64,000 bases of DNA from positions 35,774,001-35,838,000 of the forward strand of contig CM059445.1 of assembly GCA_030390025.1 (NCBI GenBank), given 5' to 3'. Positions within the stretch are counted from its first letter, which is position 1. Every line of letters starts with the position of its first letter. Source of the stretch: Squalus acanthias (Eukaryota). Below are positions 1 to 36,236 of the stretch, in pieces. Position numbers and translations under genes: made by a program. The notes beneath the pieces were generated by a model. That model worked only from the letters and a program-made list of their open reading frames with translations. It searched no databases and was not told the origin of the DNA.

Positions 1-717
1 CACCCTCGAAGGGCAAAAAGTAGGAGGTGTGACAAAATGCTGGTCATTTTTTTATTAAAGGCCGAGGTTCATGGTCCAACTTTTGTTTAGTGTTTTGGAC
101 ATTATCTCCAGGTTGTGAGAACCAGTTATGTTATTGACTGTTTTTTTGTGTTTATTTCTATGAGTTTGTCATGAGGAATTGACACACACAGAGTTTGTAA
201 AATAAATAAGTTTCTGTATTCAAAATATACATGGCTGGTGGTTGGAATTATTGGTGCCTTGGCCGGCTTAGGGGTTGCGTGCTGGGTTGATTAATGTTGG
301 TAGCAATGGCAGGGGCCCTAGAAGCGGCTTGCTATTAGCCGTTGACGGACGGCCCTTGCAGTTTGACCATTGTGGGCCGCCCTCCCGCCTTGGTGCTGCT
401 GATGATCATCGTCCTCGTCCTCTTCCTCCTCTTCCTCCTCCTCCTCTGGTGGTGCTCCAAGGCCTGGTGGCATTGGCTGGGTCCTGAGGATTGCCATGTT
501 ATGCAACATGCAGCACACGACTACGAAGTTCGATACTCGCTCAGGCGAGTACTGCAGGGCTCCTCCGGAATGGTCCAGACAGCGGAACCGTTGTTTCAGT
601 ACGCCGATTGTGCGCTCAATAATGTTCCTGGTTGCTTGATGGCTTTCATTGTACCGCAGCTCAGCAGGGGTGTTGGGCGTACGGAGCGGTGTCATCAGCC
701 AGGTGCTCAATGCATAC

Positions 718-939
718 GATAGCAAAATACTGCGGATGCTGGAAATCTGAAATAACAACAGAAAACGCTGGAAAAACTCAGCAGGCCAGGCAGCATCCGT
801 GGAGAGAGAAAGAGAGTTAACGTTTCAGGTCGAAGACCTTTCATCAGTTCTGATGAAAGGTCTTCGACCTGAAACGTTAACTCTCTTTCTCTCTCCACGG
901 ATGCTGCCTGGCCTGCTGAGTTTTTCCAGCGTTTTCTGT
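718..939. mobile_element. Hairpin (inverted pLTR) insertion of PLE family A
   Basis: 92-bp inverted arms (756-847 / 850-941) with a TT spacer. TSD TGCTCAATGCATAC at 704-717 and 940-953. Sequence matches the 3' end of the PLE at ~36200-36297. Confidence 0.9.
846..882 (+). ncRNA. Minimal type-I hammerhead ribozyme (family A)
   Basis: AGUU-CUGAUGA-A-AGGUC-UUC-GACCU-GAAA-CGUU-AACU: conserved core, stem II, stem I AGUU/AACU, palindromic ACGU helix III. Confidence 0.8.
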
Positions 940-2470
940 TGCTCAATGCATACCCCTTGTCCCCGAGAAGCCAACCAACTGGCTGATGCGGTGCCTCGAA
1001 AAGTTCTGCCACAGTAGTCTGGCGCAGGATAAAAGCATCGTGGCAGCTGCCAGGATAGTGGGCATTGACAGCGAGTATCAGCTGTCTGTGGTCACAGACC
1101 AACTGGACATTCAAGGAATGGAACCCCTTTCTGTTCCTGAATTCCTCGGCATTCTCACGCGGAGCACGCAAAGCCACATGCGTGCAGTCAATGGCGCCCT
1201 GCACCATGGGGAAGCCCGCTACCCTCGCAAATCCCAGAGCGCGGTCACGCTGCTTGTCTGGGGTCATGGGGAAAGAGATGAACTCTCATCTCCTTCTGAA
1301 GAGGGCATTTGTGACCTGCCGGATGCAGCAATGCACCGTGAACTGGGAGATATTGGCGAGGTTCCCAGCAGCAGCTTGGAATGAGCCAGTGGCGTAAAAG
1401 TTCAAAGCCACTGTGACCTTCACTGCCACCGACAGAGACGTCCTGGACCTCAGTTGAGGCTGCAGATCTGGCTGCAGCAGGTGGCAGAGCTCAGTGACCA
1501 CCTCCTTGCTGAATCGCAGCCTTCGCAAACACAGCTCCTCGGACATATGGATGTAGGAGAGCTGTTCACGATATACCCTGGGAGGGTAAGCTCTCCTGTA
1601 CATACGCCTGATGGCCCTCCTCCGTCTGGCCATCATTGCCACTCTCTCTCTGCGTCTCTGTATCCTCCGATTCAGCTGGAGCAGGACGACGCCCCCAATC
1701 AAAGTAATGCAAGCAAAGTAATGAGGGACAGCAACTAAAGTAGCAGCAAAGTTAGGATCAATAGGCAAAACTACCTCACAAAGCGTTGAGTCAATGTAGA
1801 AGTCTCTCTCTCTCTCTCTCCGAATCTCTCTCTCTCTCTCAGAACGAGTGGTGCATAAATGTCGACCACAGAAAAAGACAGGAAGAGGCCCCCTTTAAAT
1901 AGCGCCCCCCCCAGCCCCACAGCGATTGATAGCGTTCCAGTCTTCCGGTCGTTGGAAGCGCCAGGCGGTAAGGCAGGGGGCGCCACTCAATTTCCGCTCC
2001 GGGGCGCCACAAGGGCGTTGCACCATGGAATGACGTCACAATCTGCGCGCGCAGGTGGTCGCAGCGGTAAGTTTTAGCGCCGCTGCACAATCTCAAGTTA
2101 AGTTCTCGAGCGGCGCAAACATCGCTGCGCCCGGGCGTTAGCGGCTTTGCGCCCCATTAGCGCCCTCTTAAGGCGCTAACGGGAGGCGCAACCAACTGAA
2201 TTTTTACCCCTATGAATCCAGTATCTGACTACCTCTCCAATGACTCCAACCTCCACTACCCTACCCAGAAGACCTTTTCAAGTCTTACTCAAGCTTGGTG
2301 TGAAGAAGTGCTTCCTGATATCAGTCCTGAACATTCTTTTCACCAGTTTACGGAGATGCCTCTTGTCCTGCAGTTGAGGTTTAACTTGAAACATTGCTTC
2401 GGATGAACCTTTTCAGCTCTATTTATATCCGATAGACCTTTCTGATTTGCCTCCTTTCAAGGCTAAAAAG

Positions 2471-2920
2471 TCATAGATTCATATAAACTTACAGCACAGA
2501 AGGAGGCCATTCGGCCCCTGTGCTGGTGGCTCTTTGAAAGAGCAGTCGTGTTTAGTCCCACACCCCCACTTTTTGTCCATAACCCTGTAAGTTGCTCAAT
2601 CTCAAGAACCCATCCAACTCCCTTTCAAAATTATTTATGGAATCAGCTTCCACCATCTTTTCAGGTCGAGTGTTCCAGATCCCGACAACTCTCTGAGTGA
2701 AAACATTTCTCCTCATCTCCCCTCTAGATCTTTTTACAATGATTTTGAATCTATGATCTCTGGTTATTAACCCACTCGCCAGAGGGAATAGTTTTTCTTT
2801 ATCTACTCTATCAAAACCTCTCATCATCTTGAAAATCTCTATTAGGTCACCTCTTAACCTTCTCTGTTCCAAGGAGAACAGTCCTAACTTTTCCAACCTC
2901 TCCTCATAACTGAAGTTATT
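2471..2920 (-). mobile_element. CR1-like LINE 3' end
   Basis: ORF 2552-2896 LGLFSLEQRRLRGDLIE..FTQRVVGIWN, plus typical 3' UTR and short tandem tail. Confidence 0.9.
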
Positions 2921-5476
2921 CTAACCTTTCCTCATCACTCAGTCGTCTGACACTAGAGATGTACCCGTAACGTCCCATCTGCTCTCTTCACAGAGCAAGG
3001 AGAATCCAGTGAGCACCAGCTGCAGCCAAAGTACACAGCGTACTTGAGCACCAACTTCCACCCCCACCTAAAGCTGGGATCAGCACACAGACAGACTTTG
3101 GGAAATAGTCAGTGTTAATGAAAACGCATCAAGCTCTGGTGAGGAAGGGCTACGAACGACGGTTCTCAATGCAGGGCCAGCTGGTACAGAGCAGAATCCT
3201 GAGTGCCTCTAAGTTAGAAAGAAGTCGAAAGAATTTCCATTTATATAGCGTAAGTTGTATGATGTCACAGCTTCAGTAACTTTGCTTCCAAACAGAGGTA
3301 GCCTCACGTTAGATGCTCCTTCCACATGGTCCAGTGTGGAGGAGTCGGACACCCAGATATACACTGTCATCTCTCAATAAGTCATCTCATAGAACAATGA
3401 CCGCCTGTACTGCAGTATGCGATTGAGCACGTGGAAACACCAGTCACATCTGCAGTACACAGCTCAGTTACACAGCCTGTAAGCTCTGTCACGAACCATT
3501 CCCCAGGACATGTTATGTGAGACAGATGTCCAAATAGTTCTCCTTCATGTTTCAGAACTCCTACGCATCTAATTGAAGGACTTCCTCTGGCCCACACGTG
3601 AGATCCAGGGCCAAGCTGTGGGGTGCATTTTTAGCACAAAGAGTAACTGGATGAAGGGAGGGAGGGCTTCGGCTTATGGTGACCAATCACTGCGCACCCC
3701 GGGGGGGAAGGGAGGAGTTGGCCTCACAGCAGGACCACATCTTTGTCAAAGCCCCTTCACATGCAGACCTGTATTAAACTGTTGGTGATGAGCAAGCCTG
3801 GTAAATGGCGCTGACTTTGGGTGGCTAGAATATCAACGTGCCTGACATGACACAAGCAGCCCTGGGGAGGACCTTTCACCATGCTGAAGGCAGATGCCCA
3901 TCATACTGTGGATGAGGAAACTCTGAATTTTGGAACAATAATTTCCTAGATTTTTTTCCCTCAAACTGGCCTAAGATCTTTTTCTTTGGCTTCTCACAGG
4001 AGATTGCATGACTATTGAGGAAGTGGGGGGTGGGGGAGTCCAAGGTTGCAAGATGTCAAGGTGCCACAGGCTTGTACGTCTGTATGCTCCATGCCAGAAA
4101 TCGCAGCCCACTGAATTTACAAGAGATAAATGAAGAGATTAAGGGACACCGAGCTTAGGTTTAAACACCTGGACTTTGGAAGAAGAGAGGTAAGGAGTTC
4201 TACAGTTCTAAAGTCCTAGGAGAGCATAGGGGATGTTTTCCTCTTTGTAGCTTCTGGGGTACGTACAGTTCCCAGACAGCAAAGAGGAAACTGGGGGCGG
4301 AGACCCATTACATCAGATCTCTGCCTCACTATTTTGCCTTGGGATTTCCAGGGGTTCCTCCATGGGTGGTACTGGAACTATGCCTGCAGTAGACACTGGT
4401 CCAGCATATGAATGGTAGTAAGGCAATAACGGGTGTTGCCAGCCCTCCCACCTCACTTTCTTCCTCATCAGCTCATTGCATGCCCAAGCAGAGAAGCAGC
4501 CAAAGAAACTTGGCATTGGGGCTTGCGCCAGGACCCTCCATGTGAGGGGATTGCAAAGGGGCAGCCCAATGACCAAGGAGTCATAAAGGTGCAACTGGTT
4601 TGTAGTGCACTTTTAATGTATTGTTCACCCCTCCGCCCCCGCGCCCCCCCCCGGTTGATGTTTGGGCTCAGGCTTTCAGCAGCAGCCAGAAGGCCCTAAT
4701 GGCAGTGGCCAGGAGCATTGCTGCAGCCTCTCAGGCCCGCAGTTACGTTCATGTTTATCTCAGGGCAAGGCCCTGCCAAGATACCGACCTGCAAATGGCC
4801 TGGACCAGGAGAATCATGGACACCTCTCCCAATACAGGGCAGCATATCTCAGGTGCTCTGTATCTGCCAGGGTTCCAGAGAGATAATACGAGGATTTTTG
4901 ATTTCAACACAGTGAGGGATGGAATTGATGGATAGTCTCTGATTGCAGAGAGGGCATTGATTGGGACGAAGCTTTAATCTATCATTGGATGCAGAGATCT
5001 TTTCAAATATTTGCTCATGAATTCTCTCAGGAGACCACAAACGATGATGTAAAATCCAATTTCACTGATGGGCAAATATTAAGAGAAACAGTCTCTTCCG
5101 AAGGTGATTGTTTTTGTGGTTGCTGGAGATTCCTTGTCATTTAGCAAAATCCATACACCCTGTAAGCAACCATTTAATTATCGCCAGTGCTTTCCACACA
5201 CATTACAATCACAGAGCTGACAAATATGATGCGGTGTCATTTTCACACTGAATATTATATGTGATGACAGTTAAGTGGCATTGGGACAGCCCTGATAGAT
5301 CATATCCAGTGAGTGGAAGCTGGTGAAATATGATGACCTTTATCAATTGAATATCTACCAGTCTCTGTACAATATCAGGTCATCGTTTCCAAGACTATAG
5401 GCCTTCTGGTGGCACCAACATAACGCTTAACCCACTATAAATATGATTAATGTTTTGGGCAAGAGAAGACCCTGGT

Positions 5477-5937
5477 GTCAGACTTGTGTCAGTGGTAGCA
5501 CTCTCGTCTCTGCGACAGAAGGTCGAGGATCAAGCCCAAATCCTGAGACTTAAGCACATAATGTAGGCTAACACTTCAGTCTAGTGCTGAGGGAGTGCTG
5601 CACTGTCAGAGATGCTGTCTCAGATGAGATGTTAAACAGAGGACCTGCCTACTCTCTCAGGTGGACGTAAAAAATCCCATGGCAGTATTTCGAAGAAGAG
5701 CAGGGGAGTTATCCTGGTCTCCTGGCCAACACTTATCTCTCAACCAACATTACTAAAAAAAAAGATTATCCGGTCATTTATCTCATTACTGTTGGTGGGA
5801 CCTTTCCATGTGTAAATTGGCTGCCCCGTTTCCCTAAATTACAACAGTGACAATACTTCAAAAGTACTTCATTTGCTGTGACGCACTCTGAGATGTCCTG
5901 AGGTCATGAAAGGCGCTATATAAGTGCAAGTCCTTTC
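5477..5937 (+). mobile_element. Deu-domain tRNA-derived SINE (SacSINE1-like)
   Basis: tRNA-like head, GATGAGATGTTAAAC..GTGGACGTAAAAAATCCCATGGCA central domain, tail AAAGGCGCTATATAAGTGCAAGT. Confidence 0.85.
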
Positions 5938-6012
5938 CGTACCCTTCCAAAACACCCATCAAGTTGCCGTAGTTTTCTTTTAACCAAACTGGAGCAACTT
6001 ATAAAAAGCAAT

Positions 6013-6494
6013 AAGGTTTACTAGACTAATACCTGGAATGGGCGGGTTGTCTTATGAGGAAAGGTTGGACAGGCTAGGCTTGTATCCGCTGGAGTTTAGA
6101 AGAGTAAGAGGTGACTTGATTGAAACATATAAGATCCTGAGGGGCCTGGACAGGGTGGATGTGGAGAGGATGTTTCCTCTTGTGGGAGAATCTAGAACTA
6201 GGGGTCACTGTTTAAAAAATAAGGGGTCGCCCATTTAAGACAGAGATGAGGAGAATTTTTTTCTCACAGAGGGTCGTGAGTCTTTGGAACTCTCTTCCTC
6301 AGAGGGCGGTGGAAGCAGAGTCTTTGAATATTTTTAAGGCAGAGGTAGATAGATTCTTGATAAGCAAGGTGGTGAAAGGTTATCGGGGGTAGGCGGGAAT
6401 GTGGAGTAATCAGATCAGCCATGATCTTATTGAATGACGGAGCAGGCTCGAAGAGCCGAGTGGCCTACTCCTGCTCCTAATTTGTATGTTCGTA
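6013..6494 (+). mobile_element. CR1-like LINE 3' end
   Basis: GLSYEERLDRLGLYPLEFRRVRGDLIETYKIL followed by the 3' UTR. Confidence 0.9.
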
Positions 6495-6739
6495 ATAAAT
6501 CTTTCGCCTTTCTTTCATTGCCTCCCGGAGCTCTAGGAAATATCTGCAGCCTTTCTCCCCACCCTCCCCTTGTACCCACATGCTTTCATCCCCCGTTGGA
6601 CAGGCAGTGGAAGTGTTTTTCCGATGCTCTGAGCTCTATTCTCTGGATCTACAAGAAGTTGGGTTCCTGCTGCTTTTGGGACGGGGGAGGTCAGGCTGTG
6701 CCACTTAAGTTGGGAGCAACATGAGTTGATTTATGTTTT

Positions 6740-7013
6740 TGCCATCCCCATTTGCAACCTTTAACCACTCCTGCCTCCTACCTTAGCACAGAATGTTCCT
6801 TCAGTTCCTCCCCTCCCCCAACCCCCTCCCTCCCTGCCTCCGCCCCTGCTTAAAATCTGTTACATCTCCAGCCTTCTCCAGTTCTGATGAAGGGTCCCAG
6901 ACCTGAAACGTTAACTCTGTTTCTCTCTCCACGGATGCTGCCTGGCCTGCTGAGTGTTTCCAGCATTTTCTGTCGTTATTTCAGATTTCCAGCATCCGCA
7001 GTATTTTGCTATT
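6740..7013 (+). mobile_element. Solo PLE pLTR (family A) including 3' tail
   Basis: Similar to 36060-36297 and to the hairpin arms; ends GCAGTATTTTGCTATT. Confidence 0.8.
6880..6916 (+). ncRNA. Minimal hammerhead ribozyme (family A)
   Basis: AGUU-CUGAUGA-A-GGGUC-CCA-GACCU-GAAA-CGUU-AACU. Confidence 0.78.
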
Positions 7014-7547
7014 GAATGAGCTTATCATAGTTCGCAGTGGACCAAATGTCTTCTGAATTACTCTCAGACATTATTTTACCTTTCCCCTTTGGGTCTGTGC
7101 TTAACAGCAGTTAAGGGTGAAATAGGAAACAGAAATAGATTTTAATGACTAGTCTTTAACTGCTGCCCACACAGGAACTAACAAGCTGATTCAGAAAAAT
7201 ATCAGCTAGGAAATGACTGTCAGTGCTCCCCAGTCAATAGTTTGTCCAAAGAATGATTTTATTTTTGCTTCAACACCTTTGAAGAGGGGAATGAAAAACA
7301 TTCTTTATCCAGTTGTAAATGCGGGGCCAGTGCATGGTCAGTGAATGAAGCACAGATTCGGATGAGGTGCTGGAAGGCTGCCAGCGTGGGCAGGGGGGGG
7401 GGGGGCGTTCGAGGGCAGTCAGGAAATGCCTGGAGAAACTGGAGGGCAAACATTAAAAAAAAGCAAACCAAAAAAAAGTAGATGTCATCCCTCATTCTCT
7501 GTAACGTTGCCCAATCTCAAAATATTTAATTAAAGATTATAGCCTCG

Positions 7548-8085
7548 GAATCACAGAATCCCCACAGTGCAGATAGAGGCCATTTCGGCCCATCGAGCCT
7601 GCACCGACACATATCCCACCCTATCCCCGTAACCCCACGTATTTAATCCCCCTAACACTAAGGGTCATAGAAACATAGAATCTAGGAGCAGGAGTAGGCC
7701 ATTCGGCCCGTCGAGCCTGCTCCGCCATTCAACACGATCATGGCTGATCATCCAAATCCAGTACCCTGTCCCTGCTTTAATCCCCACAGTACACATATCC
7801 CACCCTACCCCCGTAACCCCACGTATTTAATTCCCCCTAACATATCCCATCCTATCCCCATAACCCCACATATTTAATCCCCCCTAACACTAAGGGTCAA
7901 TTTATCATAGCCAAATCAACCTAACCCGCACATCTTTGGACTGTGGGAGGAAGCCGGAGCACCCGGAGGAAACCCACGCAGACACGGGGAGAATGTGCAA
8001 ACTCCACACAGACAGTCACCCGAGGCCGGATTCGAACCCGGGCCCCTGGCACTGTGAGGTAACAGTGCTAACCACTATGCCACCG
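7548..8085 (-). mobile_element. HE1/V-type tRNA-derived SINE with duplicated tail and embedded CR1 end
   Basis: tRNA-like head on the minus strand at ~8020-8085, V-domain GGAGCACCCGGAGGAAACCCACGCAGACACGGGGAGAA, and a tail duplicated around a CR1 3' piece at ~7666-7776. Confidence 0.85.
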
Positions 8086-8339
8086 AATGACGGTGGGTGA
8101 TATCAGCAAACACTGAAATGAAGAAAGACTTGTATTTATATCGCGTCTTTCACAACCTCAGGACGTCCCTAAGCGCTTTACGGCTAATGAGGTACTTTCT
8201 GACGTGTAGTCAATTGTAATGTACAAACCGCGGTCGCCAATTTGCGAGCTCCCACAAACAGCAAGGTGATAATGTCCAGATAATCGGTTTTAGTGGTGTT
8301 AGTTGAAGGATAAATGTTGGCCTGCCTCTGTGTCTGTCA

Positions 8340-8530
8340 GTTGTGGGGAAAGGGCAACCAGCATTCCCATTCCTGACTAATATCGAGTGACCTCCCCGCT
8401 GGAAACAGCGTCTGTGAGGACGGGATCGGGTGCAGTTGTAATGGTGGAATGGCCTGCCGACACTCAATGTCGAGGATGACTGATGAAGACTTGGTCGAGT
8501 TACCTTCAAGCACCAGAACCTTCAAGAAAG
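8340..8530 (+). mobile_element. LF-SINE-like fragment
   Basis: GAGGACGGGATCGGG..GAATGGCCTGCCGACACTCAATGTC resembles the copy at 19470-19845. Confidence 0.55.
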
Positions 8531-9232
8531 AAGCGGAAAACTTAGAAAGAACCGAAAAAATGACAGATATAAATGGGTGGGGGGAGACGGACAGAAAGTT
8601 CGAGGATCTAGAAAGGTTGAATTTTGAAATAATCTCAGATCCAATCAATGTCCAATCCAAAGGAATTATTTCTTTTCCGGCCATCGTTTATCTGAGGTTT
8701 CCACGGTTCAAATTAGATTGAAATTCTCAAACAGCCAGAAGCTGCCCTGGATACTGAGCAAACAAACTTTCTTTTTCTGATCTCAACACAGTGAGTGACA
8801 GGGCAGGAGGTGGTGGTCACTGGTCACTGCAAGACCCCAGTGTAGCACATGGTAACTCACCGAGAGACTCCACTCCCCTCCTGTGCAGCATCCCCATCTC
8901 CCCAGTCTTTTCCTGTCTTTCTAACCAAGAAAGCTTGCAGGCTTCCTGCTCTCAAACAATGTGCCCAGTGTCACTCCCACATCTGGCTTCCTCTTGAGTT
9001 ACTTCTTGTACCTTCTCTTCCCCTCCCCCAAATGTGAAGCCTCCTTCCTCTTCATGTACTAGACATGCTGATGCAGGATAAAATCCGCTACACTTCTGTT
9101 TCTCTGGGGGGAAAAGTATATTCTGGCTCCACAGTTTGGAACATTCTACCTGCGCCCCTCTGCCTTGTTACTTCTCTCCCTTCCTTTTCGATTCTCTCTT
9201 AAGCCACCTCCCTTAATCACTTTTCCTCCATT

Positions 9233-9537
9233 TCACAGAATCCCCACAGTGCAGATAGAGGCCATTTCGGCCCATCGAGCCTGCACCGACACATATCCCA
9301 CCCTATCCCCGTAACCCCACGTATTTAAACCCCCTAACCCTAAGGGTCAATTTATCATAGCCAAATCAACCTAACCCGCACATCTTTGGGCTGTGGGAGG
9401 AAACCGGAGCACCCGAAGGAAACCCACGCAGACACGGGGAGAATGTGCAAACTCCACACAGACAGTCACCCGAGGCCGGATTCGAATGCGGGCCCCTGGC
9501 GCTGTGAGGCAACAGTGCTAACCACTATGCCACCGTG
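9233..9537 (-). mobile_element. HE1/V-type SINE inserted in an L2-like 3' end
   Basis: Near-identical to the SINE at 7548-8085; flanks resemble the L2 tail. Confidence 0.88.
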
Positions 9538-9660
9538 TTACCTTCTCTGGTTACCTTCCGACTTTGTGAAGTACCTTGGTACATGTTATTATGTTAAACG
9601 CACCATATAAGTGTATGTTTTTGTTGTTACCTTAATTAGAGAGAGGAAGAGAGAGAGAGA

Positions 9661-10107
9661 ACTTGCATTTATATAGCACCTTTCATAACCTCAGGACATC
9701 CCAAAGCACTTCATAGCCAATGAAGTACTTTTGAAGCGTAGTCACTATTGTAATGTGGCAGCCAATTTTCCCAGAGCAAGTTCCCAGAAACAGCAATGAG
9801 AGACATGGCCAGATAATCTGCTTTGATGGTGTTGAATGAAGGATAAATGTTGGCCAGGACACCGGGAGAACTGCTCTGCTCCTCTTTGAATAGTGCCATG
9901 GGATCTTTTACGTCCACCTGAGAGGGCAGGTGGGACCTCAGGTTAACATCTCATCTGACAAATGGCACCTGTGACAGTGCAAGATGCTCTCTGTACTGTA
10001 CTGGAGTGTCAACCCAGATTATGTGCTCAAGTCCTGGAGTTGGGGCTTCAGACCATGACCTTCTGATTTAGAGGCGAGAGTACTACCGACTGACCCAAGG
10101 CTAACAC
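9661..10107 (-). mobile_element. Deu-domain SINE
   Basis: Reverse complement of the family seen at 43686-44145. Confidence 0.85.
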
Positions 10108-10581
10108 AAAGGGGTGGTGCAGACTCAGTTCTACAGCAGGCTCCTCTAAGCAGCACTATATTGGCTGCTGAATTAATATTAACAATGAGCTTGGTATATG
10201 GTGAACTTTACATACAGATACATTGGGGTGTTGCTGTCATTGTTTTTAGGCTCTCCAATGGTTCAATTGGTAACTGCACCACCTGGTGTTGTGCTGAGCT
10301 ATACAGACCTGGACAGTCTGGTGATCTCAGACAGGACTATGGCATGCATGCTGGCCTGAGCACCTGTGGGCTAAAGAGAGGACATTCAAAATTAGGAATT
10401 GTACCTGATAGCGCTTGAGCTCTGACATAAGAAAACTACTAGGCACTTGGTCTAAGCGTTAAACAAAGCTTTAATCAACTGTTTTACAACATGGAGATCT
10501 AGTTGTGTCCTTCACTAGTTCCTGTTGAGGAATGTCCTGCGCAAGCTGGGCCCATGCCCGAGTATTTATACTCTCCCTGGA

Positions 10582-10600
10582 CAGCGCCACCTGCAGGCCA
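10582..10600 (-). promoter_or_regulatory. CTCF-like motif
   Basis: CAGCGCCACCTGCAGGCCA; the reverse complement matches the CTCF core consensus. Confidence 0.5.
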
Positions 10601-11713
10601 CTCAGTATTAATGACATAAGTCTTTCTTTCATGAATGACAGATTCATGTCAGGCTCATTATATAGGCTGACACGTTAATGCAGTACTGAGGGAGCCATCC
10701 TTCGGATGAGATGGTAAGCTGAGCCTGTTCCATTGGTTCAGGTAAGTGTTGAAAATTTCAAGGTACTAATCCGAGAAAAGCAGGGGCTTCTCCTAGTCGT
10801 GGAAATCTGGAATTCTCTTCCCCAAAATGATGCTGAGTTAATGAACATTGTCAAGACTGAGACCGATAGATTGTTGTTATGTCAAAGGAGGGTAAATGAA
10901 GTTAAAGTACAGGTCCGCCATGATCTAACTGAATGGCGGAGCAGGCTCGAGTGGCAGAATGGCCGACTCCTGTTCCCAAGTCTGGGAGACATTCCCGTTC
11001 AACCAAACACCCAGAAGCAAATTAATTAATCTCCGTGCTCTTTGTGGGACATGGCTGGTGCCGAAAGGCTTGTCTAGAAAATAATACTCACTGTACTCCA
11101 AAGAATGACGCATTGTGTGAAGTGCATTGAGATATTTCACTGATGTGATAAGGCACTTATATACATTCAAATATCAGGGACTCAGCTGGAAATGGTAGCC
11201 CCAGTCTCAGCTGCAGCCCTCTGAGCTAAACAGGATGGCATAGACTCCCAAGGTCAAGACCCACCTAAGAAATGGTCGCAAATCTCTGTTTTCAAATAAC
11301 CGCACGTAGGTGTTGCTTTTCTGTTGTCATGGTGCTACGGCACCCACCCTAGTGCTCACAGGGACAGACTCCACAGCTCCAGGAACTTCATCCAATAAAG
11401 TACATAAGTACGACACAAGATCACTGCATAAGATCTTCTGTAACTATGATCAAGATTCCCAGAGTCTGTCCACTTTCCACAATTAAGTTTCGAAGGTATA
11501 GTATAAGCACCTATAAAGAACGGCCTGTAGCTCCCACAGGTTATAGTCAACATTTATCTATGTTCAGCTGGGTAATTTTTTTAAATGGAACATCATTTTT
11601 AGAAGCAGTAAAAAAGGTTATAAAGTTCAACCAGCCCGTCCCATTTTGATCTCAACCCCATCTACCCATCTTCTCGCCAAATGCCTTAATCCCTTCTCTC
11701 TCCTGAAACACAT

Positions 11714-11846
11714 CCAATTGCCTCTTGAACTCTTTCCCACCATTCACTCCAATGGCTTTCCCTGTTAACCCATTGCACCAATTGCCTCTTGAACTCTTTC
11801 CCACCATTCACTCCAATGGCTTTCCCTGTTAACCCATTGCACCAAT
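11714..11846. repeat. Perfect 64-bp tandem duplication within an old LINE relic
   Basis: CCAATTGCCTCTTGAAC..CCCATTGCA starts at 11714 and again at 11778. Confidence 0.9.
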
Positions 11847-13499
11847 CTATTACCTTTGAGTGAACAAGTTCCACCTGGCCTCCATCCTTAACATTTGACT
11901 TGTGTCCCCTTTGAATTTGACCACACCCCCACCCTCCTCACCATAGTGAACATTGCCCCTGGATCAATGTGGCCAAAATATCTTCATCTGTCTATACATA
12001 TTGTTTATGCATGCTTTTTCCTATCCTATTTTCTGTTGTTACAATATTGGTCGCACTTTTATGTTAATATTTAACATATTGAAACTGGGTCTGTTAACAT
12101 TTAGAATGGAAATCTTGTATGCAAACAGTTGCCTGTAACACCATTGTTACGGGAAGGTTCTGGCCAGTAGATGGCTCTATCGATCAAGGTTCTGAAGGCT
12201 CTCCCCCAACTCTGTCGCCATTTAGTAGAGCAAAAAAATTATATTCGTCAACTGACCATTGGCAATATCATGGGTAACTTACTAGTAATCTTGAAATCTT
12301 CAAATAGGTCAACTAAAAGCCCCCACTTTACGAAAGAAAACCAGAAGAACCTTTTCTTCCTAAAATAAATTTCTGGTACCTGTGATGGTTGCCCACCTCT
12401 GTACTCTGACAGTGGTCACTGGCATTTGATTTTCAGGGGGAAATGGATGGAATCACAGAAAGTGATCCTCAAAACAGCAGTAAAAACCTTGGAATCTCAT
12501 GTAAAAAAAATAGAATGTGACTTTATTCAATCACTGTAAACTAGTGTCCTGCAGATAGTCCAAGCAACAGTGACCTTTACGGCAATGTTTTTAGAACAGA
12601 AAGTGGCATTGGGGGGAGGGGGAGACTTTCTTTGCAATTATTTTTGTCTGAAATAACCTGCAAATTTTTTTGGGGTGGCGAGGAAGAGAGAAAAACAGGT
12701 ACCATCTGTAAGCTGATGTGCAATGTTTCAAAGTGGAATTCACACACTGATCTTTAATCCTCCTCACTGCTTGTAGGGTCTGATTGAGGGGATTAGTGAG
12801 GATTCCATCCTTGCTGCATTCCTCTGCCCTGCACCCATTAATACAGATTTAATTCTTCTAGTCATTTGTCTTGTGATTATCACTCCACTAACTAAAGCAG
12901 CACAGCCCTGACAGAGAAGGCCCAAAGATCAAAGGTCAGCTGCCTTAAAAAAAAGGTTGTTTAAATTAAAGTTACCAATTAATGTTTTGCACACCTTTGT
13001 TTTAAGAAGGATGGGGTCATAGGTTATGCTGACAAATTGACTATGTTTTTTGTGTGTGTGTGTATGGGTGAGTGTGTGCATAATCCCAATTCACAAGTGG
13101 CATTTAAAAACACTTGTGCTTCGCCATCAGGTGTGAGAAGCAGAGGACAGTGAGCACCGAACAGCCTTCGTGCTACGCACGTTGCGATGGACACATCAAA
13201 CGCGAGTCTCTCCCATTTTAGCAACAATATCAAAAAAACCAGCAACTGCCACTGACTGAAAATAAACAGAGCCCCGCGCGTTTGAATAGCTTTGCAATCT
13301 GTCTCACTCTATAGTAATGGTGGTCAGGCCCCGCTCTGTAGTGACTGTTACATGGACAAAGCTGTCATTGTTTTCCACTGCAGAGCTCTGTCAACCACAG
13401 TCGAACGTGGTTGCTGTTGCTGATGGTTTACCCACATGTTCTCCTTGGTGTGGTTGGCTGCTGATGAACTCCTTTGTCAAATTCTAACTGCATTTATGT

Positions 13500-13875
13500 T
13501 GGGAGGAAAGGTAAGAAATATCAGTTTGTTTCCTTTGGAAAAAAAGAGGATACCTCGGGGGGAGACCCAACTGAAGATTACATGGGCAATTGACAAGCCG
13601 TTCACTATGGTGAAGAATTCAAATACCAGAGGACAAAAGTTAAGAAGTCAGGAATATGAAGGCCAGTCAGACAAAACTTTTTCACCTAAAGACTAGTCGA
13701 GTTATGGAGTAAGTTACCAGGGAAATGGGCTGAGGAGAAAATTGGATGTCATTCTGGAGACAAAAGGGATTGAGGGACATGATGAGAAGATGGGTAGGTG
13801 GGATTGATTAATGTAAAAGGGAGGAGTTTCTTAATCTGAATGGCCGTTTCCTATTATTAAAATGGCTTATGGTCT
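13500..13875 (+). mobile_element. Old CR1-like LINE 3' end
   Basis: Degenerate version of the CR1 C-terminus (LFPLEKKR..RG, TRGQKL) and 3' UTR. Confidence 0.6.
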
Positions 13876-15967
13876 TAGAGCGGGATCTACAAAATCAGCC
13901 TGTGAGAAACTCATTCATTTATAACATTTGAACACGTTTACAATGCACCTTGTTTAATCAAGAATTGATTAAGGAGAGAGCAAGCTCAAGGCTGTGTTTG
14001 TCTAAACCTGTCACTGGAAAGTTATTGGTATGGTTTTTCTCCCCCACTTGGAATGCAGTGTTGGGGGTCTCTTAATGTTCAACAGTGGTCACCAAGTCAA
14101 TGCTGTGTTCAGCTCCTGCAATAATTGGTGAGTTTGAAAGTCTGACTTTGCTCCACTAATGACCTATATTTGTGCTGAGATCTTGTGGAACTGGATTAGT
14201 TTTGCCATATTCATTTCATGTAAGACCAATACATTCCTGAGGCATCTTCTTACACCCAAAATATAAAGATGGTTAAATGAAACGCGCTGTGGAGGTCAGA
14301 CCGTCCTTACTTTAATATGACTTTGGTCCCCTATTAGCCCTGATGCAACCTCTCTAAGCCTCTGGTATCCTTCAACCGTTAGAGCAACTTGGTTGAACCT
14401 CCTAGTAACTACAGGAAGAAGCTCAGGTGATAGTGGAAGGCCATTAGCAGCAATGTGTGTGTGTGGATAAACGTGGATGAATGCCTTACTCAAGGACATA
14501 ACAATACAAGGGAACCCTGGAAGCTCCGTTCACCTGCTGGCTGTGCTGTCTCCGCCCATGTATTCTCACTATCCAAGTGAGAGAAACCAGAAGAAGACAC
14601 AGTAGAACACAATGTTGAGGCGGAAAAAGGAGAGCTCGATCTGCTGCATGAGATCCCTGCCAAACATGGGCGAGTTGGTCAGACTGGACTTCGGACTGAA
14701 GAAGTTTGTTTTGTATGGTGGAGGAGGGGGAAGGAATTAAGCTATGTGATAGTTGCTCCACGTTCCTTGTTTCAGGTCCCTGCACAGTTCTCAGGCTGAA
14801 GAGGTGGTCAGCAGGTGGCCATCCACTGTGCCACACCACCAGTAGAGGCGTAAGAGCAGACCAGGGTACCTCAGCCTCCCCCCTGCGAGAGGTGCACCCA
14901 GGTTCCACTCTGCAAGTACCCCTGATAACATGACGAGCTAACCCACTGTTCAGTGACCTGTATATGAGCGTTGGCACTGCCAACTTCATTTTGTGTTTAA
15001 ACCAGGTGATTTTCACAGCCAAACTCAGCAGGAGGCTTCAGCATTTCAGCACTGTTATAGCCGGCTGCTGTTTGGAGAGTGTGGCAAGAAGCAGAATTGG
15101 CTCTTGAAAGGGTTAATCAGAATCCAGCCACATACCCTTTTAGGAGTTCAGTAATTACAAAGACCGGATGCAGGGACTGCCGATGACAAGTAACTTGGGT
15201 TTCAGCATTTTATGGAGTTAATGTAAAATGCACATGTATTAGGGGGACGCACTTAAGCCCAAATAACTGTATTTATTTGCTCGAGGTAATTACAAAGCCT
15301 GCTGCTGTTTCCTGCTCTCTGCCCTCCTTCCCTTAGCTGCTGTGTGAAAGCCACAGGAAGAGGCAGTCAGGCTTATGTCCCTGATGCTTCACCCACCGGT
15401 GTTAGAAACCTTGAATGTCAGATGAGACCCAGCTGAAACTGTACCTTTCGGTTTCCTGATATAGAATGTTCCAAAACAGGGTTGTGATTCATTGCTTACA
15501 TGACGATGTCATCGCAGGAGCAGAATCCCCAGTGACGTGTTATTTTTAGCCATTCAGTCTTATTGTTATATACCGGGACTCGTAATAGCTGCAATTACAT
15601 GAAGGGGTTGACAATGCCTCGCCTGCAGACAACTATTCGAACTCCTTCTTTCTCAGGGCCTCTAAACTGTGCAACTTCTTCTTTCTCTCAGTCTACCCTT
15701 CCTGCCACATTCAGCTAATTGAAGCTTTCAGTCCCAAAAGCATTGTTGTTTGATTCCTCTCATTGCATCTCCTATTCTTCCCAGCCTTGTTCCTGTCCTG
15801 CACTAGAGGCCTTAGGCTTTATTTGTTCAATAAAAGATTAGAGGGCCTCTTTCCAGTTATTGAATTGATTTTAACTAAACTGTCTATTTTACGTGCGTTG
15901 CCGAGGTTCCCAGCTAATATGCTAATAATTGCACCTGTACCTAAATCCAAAATAACACAAAATCCTA

Positions 15968-16644
15968 GGGGGCTAAATTCAGTTGATTTGCGCCTCCCGT
16001 TAGCGCCCTCAAATCAACTAGCGCCTGGGCGCGGTGCCACTAATGCCTCCTGCGAAATTCAGCGGGAGGTTAGCGGCGGCGCTAACCGTTAGCGCTGCGC
16101 GGTGCTGCGCCGCCGGCGATGATGTCATCGCCGTGCTTGCGCCCTGCTTGCGCCCTGGCTGTAACATTGGGTGGCGCCCCCCGACTTGGTCAGGGGGGGC
16201 CTACCTGCGGCCGGGGCAGCGCTAATTAAAGGGGAGGTGGCGGGCGGCCATTTTTATTGCTGTCTGCCTGCCAGCACCTGCCCCCGTTGCTGTCCCCGGC
16301 CCCCATGAAGCCCCCCCGTGGGGTGCCGGCTGCTCTCCGTGAGCCCAGCACTCCTCTTGAGTGCCGGGCTCGTTTGCCGGCACTCCCGATCCCTGGTGGC
16401 CCAGCTGGGCGCCGGGATGCGCTGCGCCAGGCCCCTCCCCTTTAATAATGGAAGGCCTGCAGTACTGCGGCACATAGCGCCGCGATATTGGCTCGCAGCG
16501 CCCCAAGAGGGACGCGGGGCGCTTCCAGTAGCGCCCCTCCTCCCTCTCGCGGCGCTACCTGGTAAAATCGGCCGCGGGGGTGCTAACTTTTTAAGGGCAC
16601 TAAAATAGCGCTCCGGCGATTGGCGCTACCCAATTTTTACCCCC
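15968..16644. mobile_element. Harbinger-type MITE
   Basis: Termini GGGGGCTAAATTCAG and CCCAATTTTTACCCCC. The first ~40 bp nearly match the Harbinger end at 2210. CpG-rich with many TAGCGCC/GGCGCTA motifs. No clear TSD. Confidence 0.8.
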
Positions 16645-16960
16645 GAGAGCTCCAGTCCTAAACCCTATGCAGTCAGGCCACACCATATGATTCTATAGGC
16701 AATGTATGCCCAATACTTAAATAATTGCATTCAACAGCTCCATTAAACATTCTTATTAAGTTGAATCATTGTCAGTTGGTTGTGAAATCATATGGTTTAA
16801 ACACAAAATGAAGATGGTACAGCCAATATTGATACAGGCCAATGAATGGTAGAATGGCACAGTCATAGCATCAAGGATGGGCACTGAATTGAAATCAAGT
16901 GTTTCCTCACAGAGAAGGAGAGGAACATGAAGAGTGACGTACTTTGGTCTGCCCTTGTTA

Positions 16961-17560
16961 GGAACATAAGAACAGGAGAAGACCGTTCAGCCCCTCGAGC
17001 CTGTTCCGCCATTCAATGAGATCATGGCTGATCTGCATCTTATCTCCATTTATCCGTCTTGGTTCCATATCCATTAATACTCTTGGCTAGCAAAAATCTA
17101 TCGATCTCAGATTTAAACATATTAACTGAGCTAGCATCTACTGCTTTTTGTGGGAGAGAGTTCCACACTTCCAATACCCTTTGTGTGAAGAAGTCACAGA
17201 ATCACAGAATCCCCACAGTGCAGATAGAGGCCATTTCGGCCCATCGAGCCTGCACCGACACATATCCCACCCTATCCCCGTAACCCCACGTATTTAATCC
17301 CCCTAACACTAAGGGTCAATTTATCATAGCCAAATCAACCTAACCTAGCTTCTCTCCTGAATGGCCTGGCTCTGATTTCCAGGTTATGTCCCCTTGTCCT
17401 AGACTCCCCCACCAGTGGAAAAAGTTTCTCTCCATCTACCCGATCAATTCCTAAAAATCCTAAAAAGCCTCAATCAAATGATCCCTTAACTTTCTATACT
17501 CCAGGGAATACAAGCCTAGTTTATAGAATCTCTCTTCATAATTTATCCCTTGGAGCCCTG
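16961..17560 (-). mobile_element. CR1-like LINE 3' end containing a truncated HE1-type SINE (17194-17346)
   Basis: GINYEERFYKLGLYSLEYRKLR on the minus strand; the SINE tail matches 7548-7665. Confidence 0.8.
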
Positions 17561-17672
17561 TTTTTATATAACACTTGTAAACATCATAGAGATTATTCTT
17601 TGTGGTAAGTAAGGACTTCAAAGGAAACAAGGTATAAAATGACCAGCACCATAGTCTGATATCTAACACATG

Positions 17673-17881
17673 ATGCGGAGATGCCGGTGTTGGACTGGGG
17701 TGGACAAAATTGAGAGGTCGCACAACACCAGGTTATAGTCCAACAGTTTTATTTGAAATCACAAGCTTTCGGAGCTATCGATCGCCCCTTCCTCAGGTAG
17801 GAAGGGGCGATCGATAGCTCCGAAAGCTTGTGATTTCAAATAAAACTGTTGGACTATAACCTGGTGTTGTGCGACCTCTCA
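17673..17881. mobile_element. Hairpin insertion of hammerhead-bearing family B (PLE-type)
   Basis: 85-bp inverted arms (17709-17793 / 17799-17883) with a CAGGT spacer. TSD ATCTAACACATG at 17661-17672 and 17882-17893. Confidence 0.88.
17760..17799 (-). ncRNA. Minimal hammerhead ribozyme (family B)
   Basis: Minus strand reads UAC-CUGAGGA-A-GGGGC-GAUCGAUA-GCUCC-GAAA-GCUU-GUG, with palindromic AGCU helix III. Confidence 0.7.
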
Positions 17882-19469
17882 ATCTAACACATGGCCATCA
17901 ATCACAATCCTTAACTCTGAGGTTTGTGTTCCACCATCGCTTGATGATTCTGTGCACACAGAAACATCTATGGTGGGCCAACCAATCTCATCATCTTGTT
18001 TAGCATCTCATTCTCACATGCATTGTCTAGCATTGTTTAATTTTCCAAAACCCATTATTGAGCTGAAGGACAGATCCTGGGTGAGTAATCTCACCATGAA
18101 ATGAGACTGAGGAGCTAATCGAGGCAAAATAAAGCCCAGCGGGTGTGAAAATGTTTGGGATTATTCAGCTTCTGGGTTGGTAAAATGGGCACCACCAACA
18201 TGGCAAATACTAGGGCACAACGCTGTGAAAACGTGTTAACCACACTCCTGGTTTAAGGGCAGAGAAATGGATCTGAGCACCAGACCTTGGTGGCAGGGCT
18301 TCTGATGATTCCACCATACTTCGTCCTAGCCTCCTTGTAGGAAGGTAGTAGGTATCATCGATCCAGTGTCAGCCAGAAGGACATGAAGGGCTTGGGCACT
18401 GATCTCCCTGCAACCTCCATTGATAACACTGGCAGAAAGCAGGCTTCCACTGTGTCGAGGTCAGTGCTGGCAGCGTTTCAGAAGCCTGCAGTGTAGAATG
18501 GCTCTTGCTGAACTTTTGACTAAATTAATTATTCACTCGCCGACTTGAACTTCAACAAGAAGAAATAAATCCTAAAAATGAATAAAGCCGGACTTTGAAT
18601 TAAACGAGGGGCTGGTCAGAAGGGCCGGGATAAGGCGCACCGGCTATCAGAGAACAAAACCATGAAGGATCATGGAACAAGGAGAGGAATACATGGAAAA
18701 ACTGGGGATCGAGGGAGAAATGCAGAAGGATTTAAGACAGACAGGGCTACTCTTTTACAGTGACGGAATAGGTCCGGTTTCCTTTATATTACAAGGGACT
18801 GCAGAATTGTTTGCTATTTTATGGGTATTGTGATTTATAATTCGTTTCTGGTGGCTGAGGAAGTCAAATTCTGTGTTTTTTTTAACATGGGATTTTTCTG
18901 GATTTTTAACTGGGGATCACGTTACACCATTCCATTCATTTTTTCATGAAAACCACAAGTCAGTGGCCTTGGGAGGAACAGACTAGTGTCTATATGCTAG
19001 CTCATGTTTGTGAGTCAGCCTCATCAAAGCTAGAATGTAAGTGGGATTTTCCAGCCTTGCTTGAGATACTCCCTCTGCTGGATATATATAAAATTACAAA
19101 ATATATTCTTAAACACTAGGCCGCCATTGGGATTTGCCACCAGTCCTCCACAAATTCCCTACATTACAGTGATGACACTTCAAAGTACATTTCAAACTTG
19201 AGGTTCGATAAAGGCGCTATATAAATGCAAGTTCTTTCTTTCCAAACACTTTGCACCATTTATTGAAACTTTAAAAAAAACTCCTGCTGGTTTCTCTTTT
19301 TAAAGCGTTCTCAAGATTGGGAGGGTAAAGACGTCCTGATGTCAACATGATGTCAACACGCAGCCTTCAACTCCTGTCATCGCCGTGTAAAAGTTCCCCC
19401 AGAACCCAAAATAAAAGTTCATGCAAAATAAAAATGAAGAAATTCCAACTAATTCCTCTCACTTGGTGA

Positions 19470-21140: not shown

Positions 21141-21396
21141 TGTATAATAATGTATAATAATGTCTCTTAATGTCTCTTAATCTCTCCTTTTGTTCTTTCA
21201 TCCCCTCCCCCTTTTCCCAGCTTTATCCTTGCCTTAAATCTATTTGATTTCCTGCTGTTTCCAGTTCTGATGAAAGGTCTCGACCTGAAACGTTAACTCT
21301 TGTTTCTCTCTCCACGGATGCTGCCTGGCCTGCTGAGTTTTTCCAGCGTTTTCTGTTGTTATTTCGGATTTCCAGCATCTGCAGTATTTTGCTATC
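21141..21396 (+). mobile_element. Solo PLE pLTR (family A) with tail and TSD
   Basis: TSD GTATAATACC at 21131-21140 and 21397-21406; ends TTTTGCTATC. Confidence 0.88.
21263..21298 (+). ncRNA. Minimal hammerhead ribozyme (family A)
   Basis: AGUU-CUGAUGA-A-AGGUC-UC-GACCU-GAAA-CGUU-AACU. Confidence 0.75.
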
Positions 21397-33602: not shown

Positions 33603-34430
33603 AGGTGTGACAGCTGAGTCAGGTCACCCGAAACTCAAACAAGTAACTTCCAGATGAAGTCACTGGATGAAGTTGGGTTTAATAACTCCGGCTGATTTCT
33701 CCCCATCTCAGCTGGGTGACATTGTGGTCCAGTTGTTGCTTCCTCACTGCGGCCGGCTGAGATCAGCCAACCAGCCAGATCGAGGACTGAACCTGAGGAC
33801 CTTCCAAGTCTGCGTGGCTCAGCGTCACACCATGAGACCCCCCTGGACTCATGAGACTCCTTGGGCCCACTGTCCCCTCTGACCTTCCCCTCTCTGACCC
33901 CGAACGATCAGTCCTCAGCAAAGGCCTGAGCTTCAACCCCTTATGGCCCCACGTCAATGAATTTCGAGCTCAGCACGACACTCAGCTCTTTTTCTGTCAC
34001 CTTCGTCTCCGTGCCCACTTCTTTGGCCAGGAGTCTTCCCCCCGCATGGCTGACCCTCTCGCCTGTTTTCAGAATTCTCGTTCCACCTGGACCCCTCCCT
34101 CTGGCCTCTTACCCTCTCTAGATCTTTTCATTGCGATCTGCAGGCGTGACATCGGTCGTCTCCATCTCTCTGCTCCCCTCACTCACTCCTACCTCCCTCT
34201 GAACTTGCAGCATTCTGTTCTCTCAGATCCAACCCCAACATTGTCATTAAACCTGTTGACAAGGGTGGTGCTGTTGTTGTTTGGCGAACCAACCTCTACC
34301 TTGCGGAGGCTGAAACCCAACTCTCCGACACCTCCTCCTACCTCCGCCTGGACCATGACCCCACTACCGAACATCAAGCCAAGTTTCCAAGACTGTCACT
34401 GACCTCATCTCCTCTAGAGATCTTCCCTCC

Positions 34431-35387
34431 ATGGCCGCCAACCTCATAGTCCCCCAACCCTGCACAGCCCGCTTCTACCTCCTTCCCAAGATCCACAAAC
34501 AGGACTGCCCTGGTAGACCCATCGTTTCAGCCTGTTCTTGCCCCACGGAACTGATTTCTTCCTATCTCGACTCTATTTTTTCTCCCCTTGTCCAGTCTCT
34601 TCCCACCTATATCTGCGACTCTTCCGACGCCCTCCGCCACTTTAACAGTTTCCAGTTTCCCGGCCCCAACCGTCTCCTTTTCACTATGGATGTCCAATCC
34701 CTCTACACCTCCATCCCCCACCAGGACGGCCTGAGGGCGCTCCGCTTCTTCCTTGAACAGAGGCCCAACCAGTCTCCTTCCACCACCACCCTCCTCCGCC
34801 TGACTGAACTTGTTCTCACATTGAACAACTTCTCCTTTGACTCCACTCACTTCCTCCAAATTAAAGGTGTTGCTATGGGAACCCGCATGGGTCCCAGCTA
34901 TGCCTGCCTTTTCGTGGGATACGTGGAACATTCTTTGTTCCAGTTCTACTCAGGTCCCCTCCCTCACCTCTTTCTTCGCTACATTGATGACTGTATCGGT
35001 GCTGTTTCCTGCTTTTGCCCTGAACTAGAAAATGTCCTTCATTTTGCTTCCAATTTCCACCCTTACCTCATCTTCACATGGTCCATCTCTGACTCTTCCC
35101 TTCCCTTCCTCAACTTCTCTGTCTCCATTTCTGGGGATAGGCTATCGACAAATATCCACTATAAGCCCACAGCTAACTGGACTACACTTCCTCCCACCCC
35201 ACTTCCTGTAAGGATTCTATTCCATTCTCCCAGTTTCTCCATCTCCGTCGCATCTGCTCTGACGATAACACCTTCCATACCAGTGCTTCAAATACGTCTT
35301 CCTTACTCCTCAACCGATGACTCCCCTCTACCATGGTTGACACGGCCCTCGACTGTGTCCGTTCCATTTCCCACACTTCTGCTCTAA
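34431..35387 (+). pseudogene. PLE reverse transcriptase ORF fragment
   Basis: 318-aa ORF with PLE RT motifs including YIDD; frameshifts on both sides. Confidence 0.9.
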
Positions 35388-36198
35388 CCCCTTCCCCTCC
35401 CTCCCAGAACCACGATAGGGTTCCCCTTGTCCTCACCTTTCACCCCACCAGCCTCCACATTCAATGGATCATCCTCCGCCATTTCCGCCACCTCCAGCAT
35501 GATCCCACCACCAAACACATCTTCCCCTCACCTCCCCTTTCAGCATTCCGAAGGGACCGCTTTCTCCGCCCTGGTCCTCGCCTCAATCACCCCCAACACC
35601 CCCTCCCCTCCCCTCCCCACGGCACCTTCCTGTGCAAGCGCAGGAGATGCAACACCTGCCCTTTTACTTTCTCCCTTCCCACTGTCCAGGGCCCCAAACA
35701 CTCCTTCCAGATGAAACAGAGATTTACTTGTACATCTTGCAATTTAGTATACTATATTCACTGCTCATGATGTGGTCTCCACTTTAATTGTTCGCTCCAC
35801 TCCCACTCTGACCTCTCTGTCCTCGGCCTCTTACATTGTTCCGACAAAGCTCAACGTAAGCTCGAGGAACATTACATCATCTTTCGATTAGGCACTTTAC
35901 AGCCTTCTGGACTTAACATCGAGTTCAACAATTTCAGATCATAACCTCTGCCCCTATTTTTTCACATGGCAGCTGTTGATGTTCCTGCCATTCCCATTTA
36001 CACCTCTTCCAGACTCATCTTTTGTTTCTTTACTTGTCCCATTACTATTTCCTTTTGCTTTGTACAATCATCCCTTTTGTCATTTAATCTCTCCTGCCTT
36101 CCACCCTATCACAGACCTTCCCTTTTGTTCTTTCCTCCCCTCCTCCATTTCCCTGCCCCTGCACTTGCTTAAAACCTGTTACATCTCTAACTTTTTAC

Positions 36199-36236
36199 AG
36201 TTCTGACGAAAGGGTCATCGACCTGAAACGTTAACT
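36199..36236 (+). ncRNA. Minimal hammerhead ribozyme in the PLE pLTR
   Basis: AGUU-CUGACGA-AA-GGGUC-AUC-GACCU-GAAA-CGUU-AACU. Confidence 0.75.

Follow-up and report, generated by a model that had tools for sequence, protein, structure and literature searches.

Endonuclease-bearing (EN+) Penelope-like elements (PLEs) are known to leave complex insertions, in which an inverted, 5'-truncated copy sets pseudo-long terminal repeats (pLTRs) head to head with a tail on one of them, flanked by a target-site duplication (TSD) of variable length and joined at palindromic junctions, as described in the available sections of two reports (PMC8557442, PMC3846280). In those sections the 30–40-bp tail is called optional and palindromes are read as self-priming, perhaps on antisense RNA; the same passages give neither statistics on single tails nor a pile-up of junctions at an initiator (Inr). 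The origin of inverted pLTRs and tails is called unresolved in the accessible part of one (PMC8557442), and later PLE insertion steps are called unvalidated in that of a study on Poseidon of Anolis (PAc) (PMC11167929). For PAc in vitro, the latter describes two internal start sites for reverse transcriptase (RT) whose interval is the tail, cutting and extension of both target strands, a predicted dimer, and a template spanning the junction of pLTR and open reading frame (ORF), with no need for ribozyme cleavage; the text available to us gives no explanation of inverted copies. Pairs of minimal hammerhead motifs on opposite strands, 100–700 bp apart, have been noted in PLEs by a paper whose available part proposes self-cleavage and circular templates and contains no analysis of hairpin junctions (PMC4209133). 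Here, a 64,000-nucleotide stretch of Squalus acanthias DNA (GCA_030390025.1, contig CM059445.1, positions 35,774,001 to 35,838,000, forward strand; the window) was analyzed, which holds two hairpin-shaped PLE insertions, A and B, of about 220 bases each. Comparison with related copies in the genome yielded two quantitative rules for any PLE model: hairpins never carry two tails, and their inner ends stop in a cliff at an Inr-like base. These two features are new here and, with moderate confidence, point to coupled priming and run-off at the RNA 5' end. Neither was found in print in searches of titles and abstract openings, which also gave no paper on strong-stop transfer in PLEs, in a literature coverage that leaves out most subscription papers and Repbase reports.

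Positions within each family are counted from the C of the hammerhead box CUGANGA (+1), the preceding base being 0. The original prediction had described fold-back inserts at 718–939 and 17673–17881 with tails of 38 and 36 nt, TSDs of 14 and 12 bp, and a 2-nt microhomology between the short arm and the TSD (TG and AT). All of these traits were found again at both loci, which are composed as follows.

704..717, unstranded: left TSD of locus A, 14 bp; the final 4 nt also equal family sequence past the tail.
718..755, minus strand: family A tail, 38 nt, the interval between two putative priming sites at about +92 and +130.
756..847, minus strand: tailed arm of locus A, family +92 to +1; core box kept, 5' strand of stem I broken.
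846..882, plus strand: putative complete minimal hammerhead of locus A, on the short arm; 5' strand of stem I at 846–849, core from 850, predicted cut after 878.
850..941, plus strand: untailed arm of locus A; last 2 nt (TG) common with the TSD.
940..953, unstranded: right TSD of locus A, 14 bp.
321..824, minus strand: target of insertion A, an open frame that runs into the insert and matches a Harbinger-type DDE transposase (PF13359, E 2.8e-15).
17661..17672, unstranded: left TSD of locus B, 12 bp; shares 4 nt with the end of the tail and the ORF start codon in family B.
17673..17708, minus strand: family B tail, 36 nt; abuts the first ATG of the ORF in full-length elements.
17709..17798, minus strand: tailed arm and loop of locus B, reaching family -1; putative hammerhead at 17759–17798 with a shortened stem I.
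17799..17883, plus strand: untailed arm of locus B, beginning at +4 with an incomplete core box; last 2 nt (AT) common with the TSD.
17882..17893, unstranded: right TSD of locus B, 12 bp.

The arms of locus A (756–847 and 850–941) are perfectly complementary over 92 bp around a 2-nt loop (848–849), and those of locus B (17709–17793 and 17799–17883) extend over 85 bp around a 5-nt loop. On the tailed side, microhomology with the TSD is 4 nt at both loci and at B takes in the ORF start codon. Excision of insert A and one TSD copy in silico restored a 243-aa minus-strand open frame, whose flank matches a Harbinger-type DDE transposase; insert A is therefore a true insertion. The insert sits in this transposase frame within the region 201–1500 of the window, on the minus strand. 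No further inverted repeat with arms longer than 20 bp (loop of at most 40 nt) was present in the 64-kb window.

When the motif was read by eye against its published description (PMC4209133), a complete hammerhead was placed on the short arm in A, an arm that begins at the Inr-like position -3/-4. In B it was placed on the tailed arm, with a stem I that, as read from the sequence, keeps two of four natural pairs plus one wobble. These motifs share with metazoan PLE minimal hammerheads, as the accessible part of the same paper presents them, the extra base before stem II, the short stem I and the palindromic 15.2–16.2 without loop 3 (PMC4209133). Rfam returned no hammerhead and only miRNA-like hairpin matches below the gathering score. 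Monomer folding recovered stem II and not the hammerhead fold, an outcome that says little about a motif thought likely to act as a dimer.

Upstream of the arm sequence, solo copies of either kind run on into frames that carry RT and GIY-YIG motifs, and the arms of A and B are the terminal 90–130 nt of such RT/GIY-YIG elements, in keeping with the predicted derivation from PLEs. Inserts A and B had no blastn similarity to each other, and the families are unrelated as DNA; their proteins are not, as the RTs are 38% identical over 257 aa. Family B has a 921-aa open frame (RVT_1, E 2.5e-8) with YIDD and a GIY-YIG motif with an inner Cys, and one fragment matched PF01541 at E 7e-4, below cut-off. 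The B protein had no match among solved structures. In family A the RT was found, together with the same GIY-YIG motif in one frameshifted copy. Both families carry a CX2-5CxxC motif within the linker that joins RT to endonuclease. This zinc-finger motif, which Penelope and Poseidon are without, marks Neptune/Nematis-type PLEs in the available text of PMC8557442.

A partial-tandem organization forming pLTRs was found in both families. Family B is represented by many identical young copies and has a tandem period of 3,138 bp, and full-length elements carry partial copies upstream; six long A copies have an upstream pLTR, and their tail continues into shared internal sequence. A minimal hammerhead is predicted within the pLTRs from the published motif description (PMC4209133). 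In full-length B elements the tail stops at the first ATG of the ORF, and hammerhead, arm and tail span the distance from a TATA/Inr-like motif to that ATG, whereas the PAc ORF starts inside the hammerhead according to the available text (PMC11167929). Hammerhead, arm and tail thus serve twice, as the 3' end that closes every insertion and as the 5' leader that opens the following tandem unit. Loci A and B are the shortest form of the known PLE insertion, namely an inverted truncated pLTR, a pLTR with tail, and a TSD. They differ from the complex insertions presented in the accessible passages (PMC8557442, PMC3846280) in that no ORF lies between the arms and copies number in the tens of thousands. 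Other copies of the two families in the window are listed below.

33836..36299, plus strand: family A copy, long but 5'-truncated; RT present (RVT_1, E 1e-5, below the Pfam cut-off), endonuclease region degraded; ends untailed.
21187..21396, plus strand: tailed solo copy of family A that retains about 80 nt of the natural sequence upstream; others lie at 6884–7012 and 27619–27747.
50570..50695, plus strand: untailed solo copy of family B that retains the natural TATA/Inr-like sequence upstream; left end approximate.

In the six long A elements (L183, L190, L194, L198, L201 and L205), a pyrimidine-rich CAG followed by ATG stands about 30 nt after the tail. This suggests that an intron ending just before the ORF could remove the priming sites from translated A RNA. 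About 170 nt upstream of the B hammerhead at one locus (L046), some 14 nt are identical to the end of the A tail, which may be chance. One exact-apex A hairpin (L007, G000:C1:36675649-36678672) is nested in the RT region of an older A element.

Head-to-head pairs were counted across the 3.7-Gb genome with exact-anchor patterns, for which reversed controls gave 0. Both arms had to contain the anchors, and B gaps above 200 nt were left out. Family A gave 5,742 pairs with gaps of 0–120 nt and 1,691 with gaps of 121–400 nt (about 7,400), and family B 18,240 with gaps of 0–200 nt. The two families together account for about 25,000 minimal head-to-head products, in a genome that also keeps young intact 921-aa frames. 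Long head-to-head insertions were common as well: by eye, about 13 pairs of opposite-strand B RT matches, 0.5–7 kb apart, were seen among the 150 listed. The analyzed sample of 115 was taken from the head of the listings, with 50 plus 15 pairs of A and 50 of B, all from contig 1. It includes three likely segmental duplicates (L116/L117, L144/L145 and two copies in L165), which were removed only for the arm-agreement analysis and the rare-variant count. Junction positions may be off by 1–3 nt, and the numbering used for B can shift by as much as 5 nt downstream of loop II.

Outer ends fell into two clusters about 35–40 nt apart, at about 91–100 and 128–137 in A and about 81–89 and 120–127 in B. 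Across the 115 pairs both tails and TSDs were stereotyped: tails measured about 30–41 nt (medians of about 35 nt in A and 37.5 nt in B), and a TSD was found in 46 of 65 A pairs (mode 14, peak 14–15 bp) and 48 of 50 B pairs (mode 12, peak 12–13 bp). Exactly one tail was present in 60 of the 65 A pairs, the other five having none, and in all 50 B pairs; two tails occurred in 0 of 115. Half would be expected from independent choice, and the excess of single tails has P values of 5e-13 (A) and 2e-15 (B). When copies were picked by their 5' end, none of the 44 that had an inverted partner was tailed on both arms, and three inverted insertions of 3.4–7 kb with TSDs obeyed the rule too. The bimodal outer ends and the single tail per pair support the prediction that both target ends prime at two fixed sites of the RNA. 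Two start sites with the tail as their interval are proposed here from copies and shown in vitro for PAc, in the text available (PMC11167929).

The constancy of the 2-nt microhomology did not extend to the sample. Short-arm microhomology ranged from 0 to 8 nt and was exactly 2 nt in only 4 of 46 A and 9 of 48 B pairs. Raw counts of short arms with 1 nt or more, inflated by mismatch-tolerant extension, were 29 of 46 for A and 36 of 48 for B. Short microhomologies are common here, while the available PAc text describes priming without homology and no coupling of strand to site (PMC11167929).

In L1 twin priming, two target ends prime on the RNA and the resulting inversion is joined by microhomology. 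The L1 cDNAs cover different RNA segments and the second primer is variable, whereas both sites are fixed and the arms overlap in the hairpins.

The inner ends were less uniform than a fixed apex near CUGANGA, as originally predicted, would require. Both arms ended within 8 nt of the box in a minority of pairs (18/65 A, 17/50 B), and most junctions were distinct (63 classes in 65 A pairs, 43 in 50 B pairs). Single arm ends piled up 3–7 nt upstream of CUGANGA. In A, 29 of 130 ended at -4 to -2, against 5 in the next 10 nt upstream and 28 in the 10 nt downstream. In B, 25 of 100 ended at -6/-5; the 10 nt upstream held 16, some of which belong to other subfamilies or are duplicates, and the 10 nt downstream 26. 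Genome-wide, a purine replaced the family pyrimidine at -7 in 4,119 B copies and one base further up in 1,040. A copies diverging from the family just before -3 numbered 4,321 and just before -2 6,021; 60 such loci were read, of which 49 were truncations and 11 mutated natural copies. Many of these A copies are solos, so that the A edge is not confined to hairpins.

At the edge stands the A of a YYANWYY-type motif, the form of the Inr consensus, 29–33 nt after TATATA (67 B copies) or a TTAAA-like box (18 A copies). A putative TATA box and a TCACT Inr-like motif are described for the rotifer Pen2a pLTR in the available part of PMC3846280. Among 100 B matches listed, the base before the edge was G in 83 and A in 17, as counted by eye. 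In 9 of 30 B loci this G was the last base of the partner with no longer microhomology, and no clear A case was seen (by eye; rough P 1e-4). An untemplated G is a published mark of cap copying, reported for L1 and SVA (PMC3287187), and the B excess fits a C added opposite the cap. The pile-up was observed in both families, and the G excess in B, with no clear one in A.

A different source of the cliff would be the ribozyme itself: both ends would prime, and synthesis would be halted by the ribozyme fold, a bound protein or self-cleavage. Pairs whose deeper arm ends within -12 to +8 do make up 40 of the 65 in A and 37 of the 50 in B, the A peak coincides with the 5' base of stem I, and arm ends are dense across the core too. 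RT, however, would meet the stem from its 3' side, yet the peak falls after the whole motif has been copied, and the B peak lies 2–3 nt beyond stem I. The predicted cut (+29/30) was the end of 1 of 130 A arms and, in B, of arms at about three loci (L160, L165 and L168) that start at or beside it. With so few ends at the cut, we discard the idea that arm ends stem mainly from ribozyme cleavage. Neither the TATA/Inr spacing nor the B excess of G is explained by a stall, and cleavage is dispensable for the anole element in the available text (PMC11167929). We regard a ribozyme stop as improbable. The predicted termination of synthesis at the ribozyme structure fits worse than run-off, as ends lie just past the 5' edge of the ribozyme, at the Inr-like base, and rarely at the cut.

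For family A alone, the pyrimidine-rich CAG before the core could be a 3' acceptor, with spliced RNA being copied. The motif is acceptor-like, and an intron of the D. virilis element ends at the 5' end of helix I, according to the available text of PMC4209133. Copies starting at -3/-2 adjoin the TSD or the partner directly, though, with no shared upstream exon, and family B has the same cliff without an AG. A splice junction therefore seems very improbable.

The proposal of a mobile, non-autonomous hairpin retrozyme copied as a unit was also weighed. Exactly the same A apex is shared by 290 genome copies, and one complex B junction occurs at two target sites (L141; L144 = L145) with the tail on the same side. 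The exact A apex, however, is a 3-nt microhomology hot spot that occurs in several subfamilies, with the tail on either side in a ratio of 14:14 (2 without tail), and accounts for only 2 of 65 sampled pairs. Junctions are mostly unique, a recurrent B junction switches tail side (1/4), and the complex junction has 3 copies genome-wide, all within 550 kb. The same junction and tail side was not seen at many independent target sites, the one exception having two. Non-LTR retrozymes are likewise non-coding, hammerhead-bearing and PLE-derived, but in the available text they form head-to-tail tandem units with complete ribozymes, where the present copies are head to head with mostly broken motifs and unique junctions (bioRxiv 10.64898/2026.07.22.740005). 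A retrozyme is defined by two or more head-to-tail units that all hold a complete hammerhead; loci A and B form no tandem array, and both are head to head with at most one complete motif. A mobile hairpin class is accordingly not supported and we hold it to be highly doubtful: as objects, the hairpins are common PLE remnants and do not make up an element class of a new kind. The three copies of the complex junction (L141, L144 and L145, at G000:C1:3.43, 3.97 and 3.98 Mb) keep the TATA-like box, and their target sites are 530 kb apart; this junction may represent a rare local re-transposition of a hairpin.

Median identity of the arms was 0.966 (A) and 0.988 (B) within loci and 0.897 and 0.918 between loci. 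Subfamily states were common to both arms far above random pairs (for example, 0/45 discordant against 22.0 expected), and rare variants were found in both arms in 14 and 6 cases. Shared subfamily states indicate that both arms came from one RNA or one source locus, and do not separate fold-back from twin priming. In 6 of 49 B loci the arms differed at two or more diagnostic columns around hammerhead loop II. At L067, L075, L138, L144, L167 and L169, arms that differ around stem-loop II agree at distal diagnostic sites, although L067 may be an alignment effect. The stem-loop may be a hot spot of RT errors, which could underlie the variability known from PLE hammerheads.

The strongest competitor is fold-back, in which one cDNA reaches the RNA end, folds on itself, is copied to about 35 nt short of its start and is joined to the other target end, with later spacer inversions randomizing which arm holds the unpaired inner part. 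The near-identical arms with shared subfamily states and rare variants are what it expects, some junctions are perfect palindromes, and self-priming is the published reading of palindromic PLE junctions in the accessible text of PMC3846280. A first strand that has no tail, however, cannot act as template for one, yet 8 of 25 B and 9 of 14 A one-tailed pairs combine an untailed start-site arm with a tailed partner, and the same arrangement occurs in 14 of 28 exact-apex loci, near-perfect ones included. Nor can fold-back copy the tail-only inverted partner of L263, which barely overlaps the main arm. Untailed solo copies are common, yet tail-less hairpins number 0/50 in B and 5/65 in A, and the loop II differences also stand against a copied arm. 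The deeper arm was tailed or untailed in ratios of 25:31 (A) and 21:25 (B), and 14:14 at the exact A apex. The roughly equal use of tailed and untailed arms at the start site, L263, the rarity of tail-less hairpins and the loop II differences favor two priming events; later spacer inversion could mimic the first of these. Fold-back is thus considered unlikely.

Coupled priming from two target ends is the reading we prefer, as moderately probable on the evidence of the copies: a hairpin would arise when two staggered target ends each prime a cDNA near the RNA 5' end, the cDNAs run to or towards a putative capped start just upstream of the hammerhead, and their tips are joined. The endonuclease would cut with a 12–15-nt stagger, as TSD lengths suggest. 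One target end would start where the tail ends and its counterpart some 35 nt upstream of that point, and no pair was seen with two starts at the tail end; an asymmetric dimer may give each DNA end one start site. Priming near the RNA 5' end yields a short run-off cDNA in retroviruses, the minus-strand strong-stop DNA. The start site used here would likewise lie near the RNA 5' end and limit each cDNA to 100–135 nt; retroviruses, unlike the target-end priming proposed, are tRNA-primed and work off target. A cDNA that gets to the 5' end, in many cases with an extra C (a feature clear for B alone), would then jump onto or anneal to the 3' end of the other cDNA. The partner would be joined wherever it had reached, leaving one arm at the start site and the other of variable length. 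Since the product usually lacks the upstream TATA-like box and downstream ORF sequence, it is predicted to be a dead end. With at most one tail in sampled hairpins and arms that often stop at the likely transcription start, hairpins are probably dead-end products, and the alternative of a stereotyped abortive product, also raised originally, holds.

Several observations weigh against coupled priming. Four contig sets tentatively taken as RNA cover the stretch and give no position for the proposed start. Family A has no clear excess of G, with G37:A30:T33 before -3 and G10:T14:C6 in the first 30 before -2 (counts made by eye, mutated natural copies included), and for many of the B G's, GA/A microhomology or a short snap-back is an explanation as well. 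Pairs with an arm in the peak number only 23 of 65 in A and 23 of 50 in B. Of 20 full-length B elements, none has its start at -6; most run on upstream as partial tandems, so that a multi-unit RNA or a template jump is needed. Agreement between the arms of a pair is predicted equally well by fold-back. The anole protein used both start sites on both strands alike in the available text (PMC11167929), and the D. virilis promoter is TATA-less, with its start 46 nt plus an intron upstream of the hammerhead.

A broader scheme can be offered tentatively, and is less likely to be right than wrong: PLE RT would begin by the 5' end of its own mRNA from both target ends simultaneously, one per start site, and the retrovirus-like strong-stop cDNAs would give hairpins when joined to each other and pLTRs or partial tandems when moved to the 3' repeat of the RNA. 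Under this scheme the hairpins, tens of thousands in number, would preserve the trace of an LTR-like strand-transfer step made by a retroelement that is target-primed and related to telomerase.

Other repeats were also present in the window. LINE-type RT frames lie at 28310–29269 (plus strand; RVT_1, E 8e-35) and 60821–61924 (minus strand; E 1e-27). Many SINE-like repeat copies are spread across 5.5–59 kb, and a tandem array with a 10-bp period occupies 55.4–56.5 kb.

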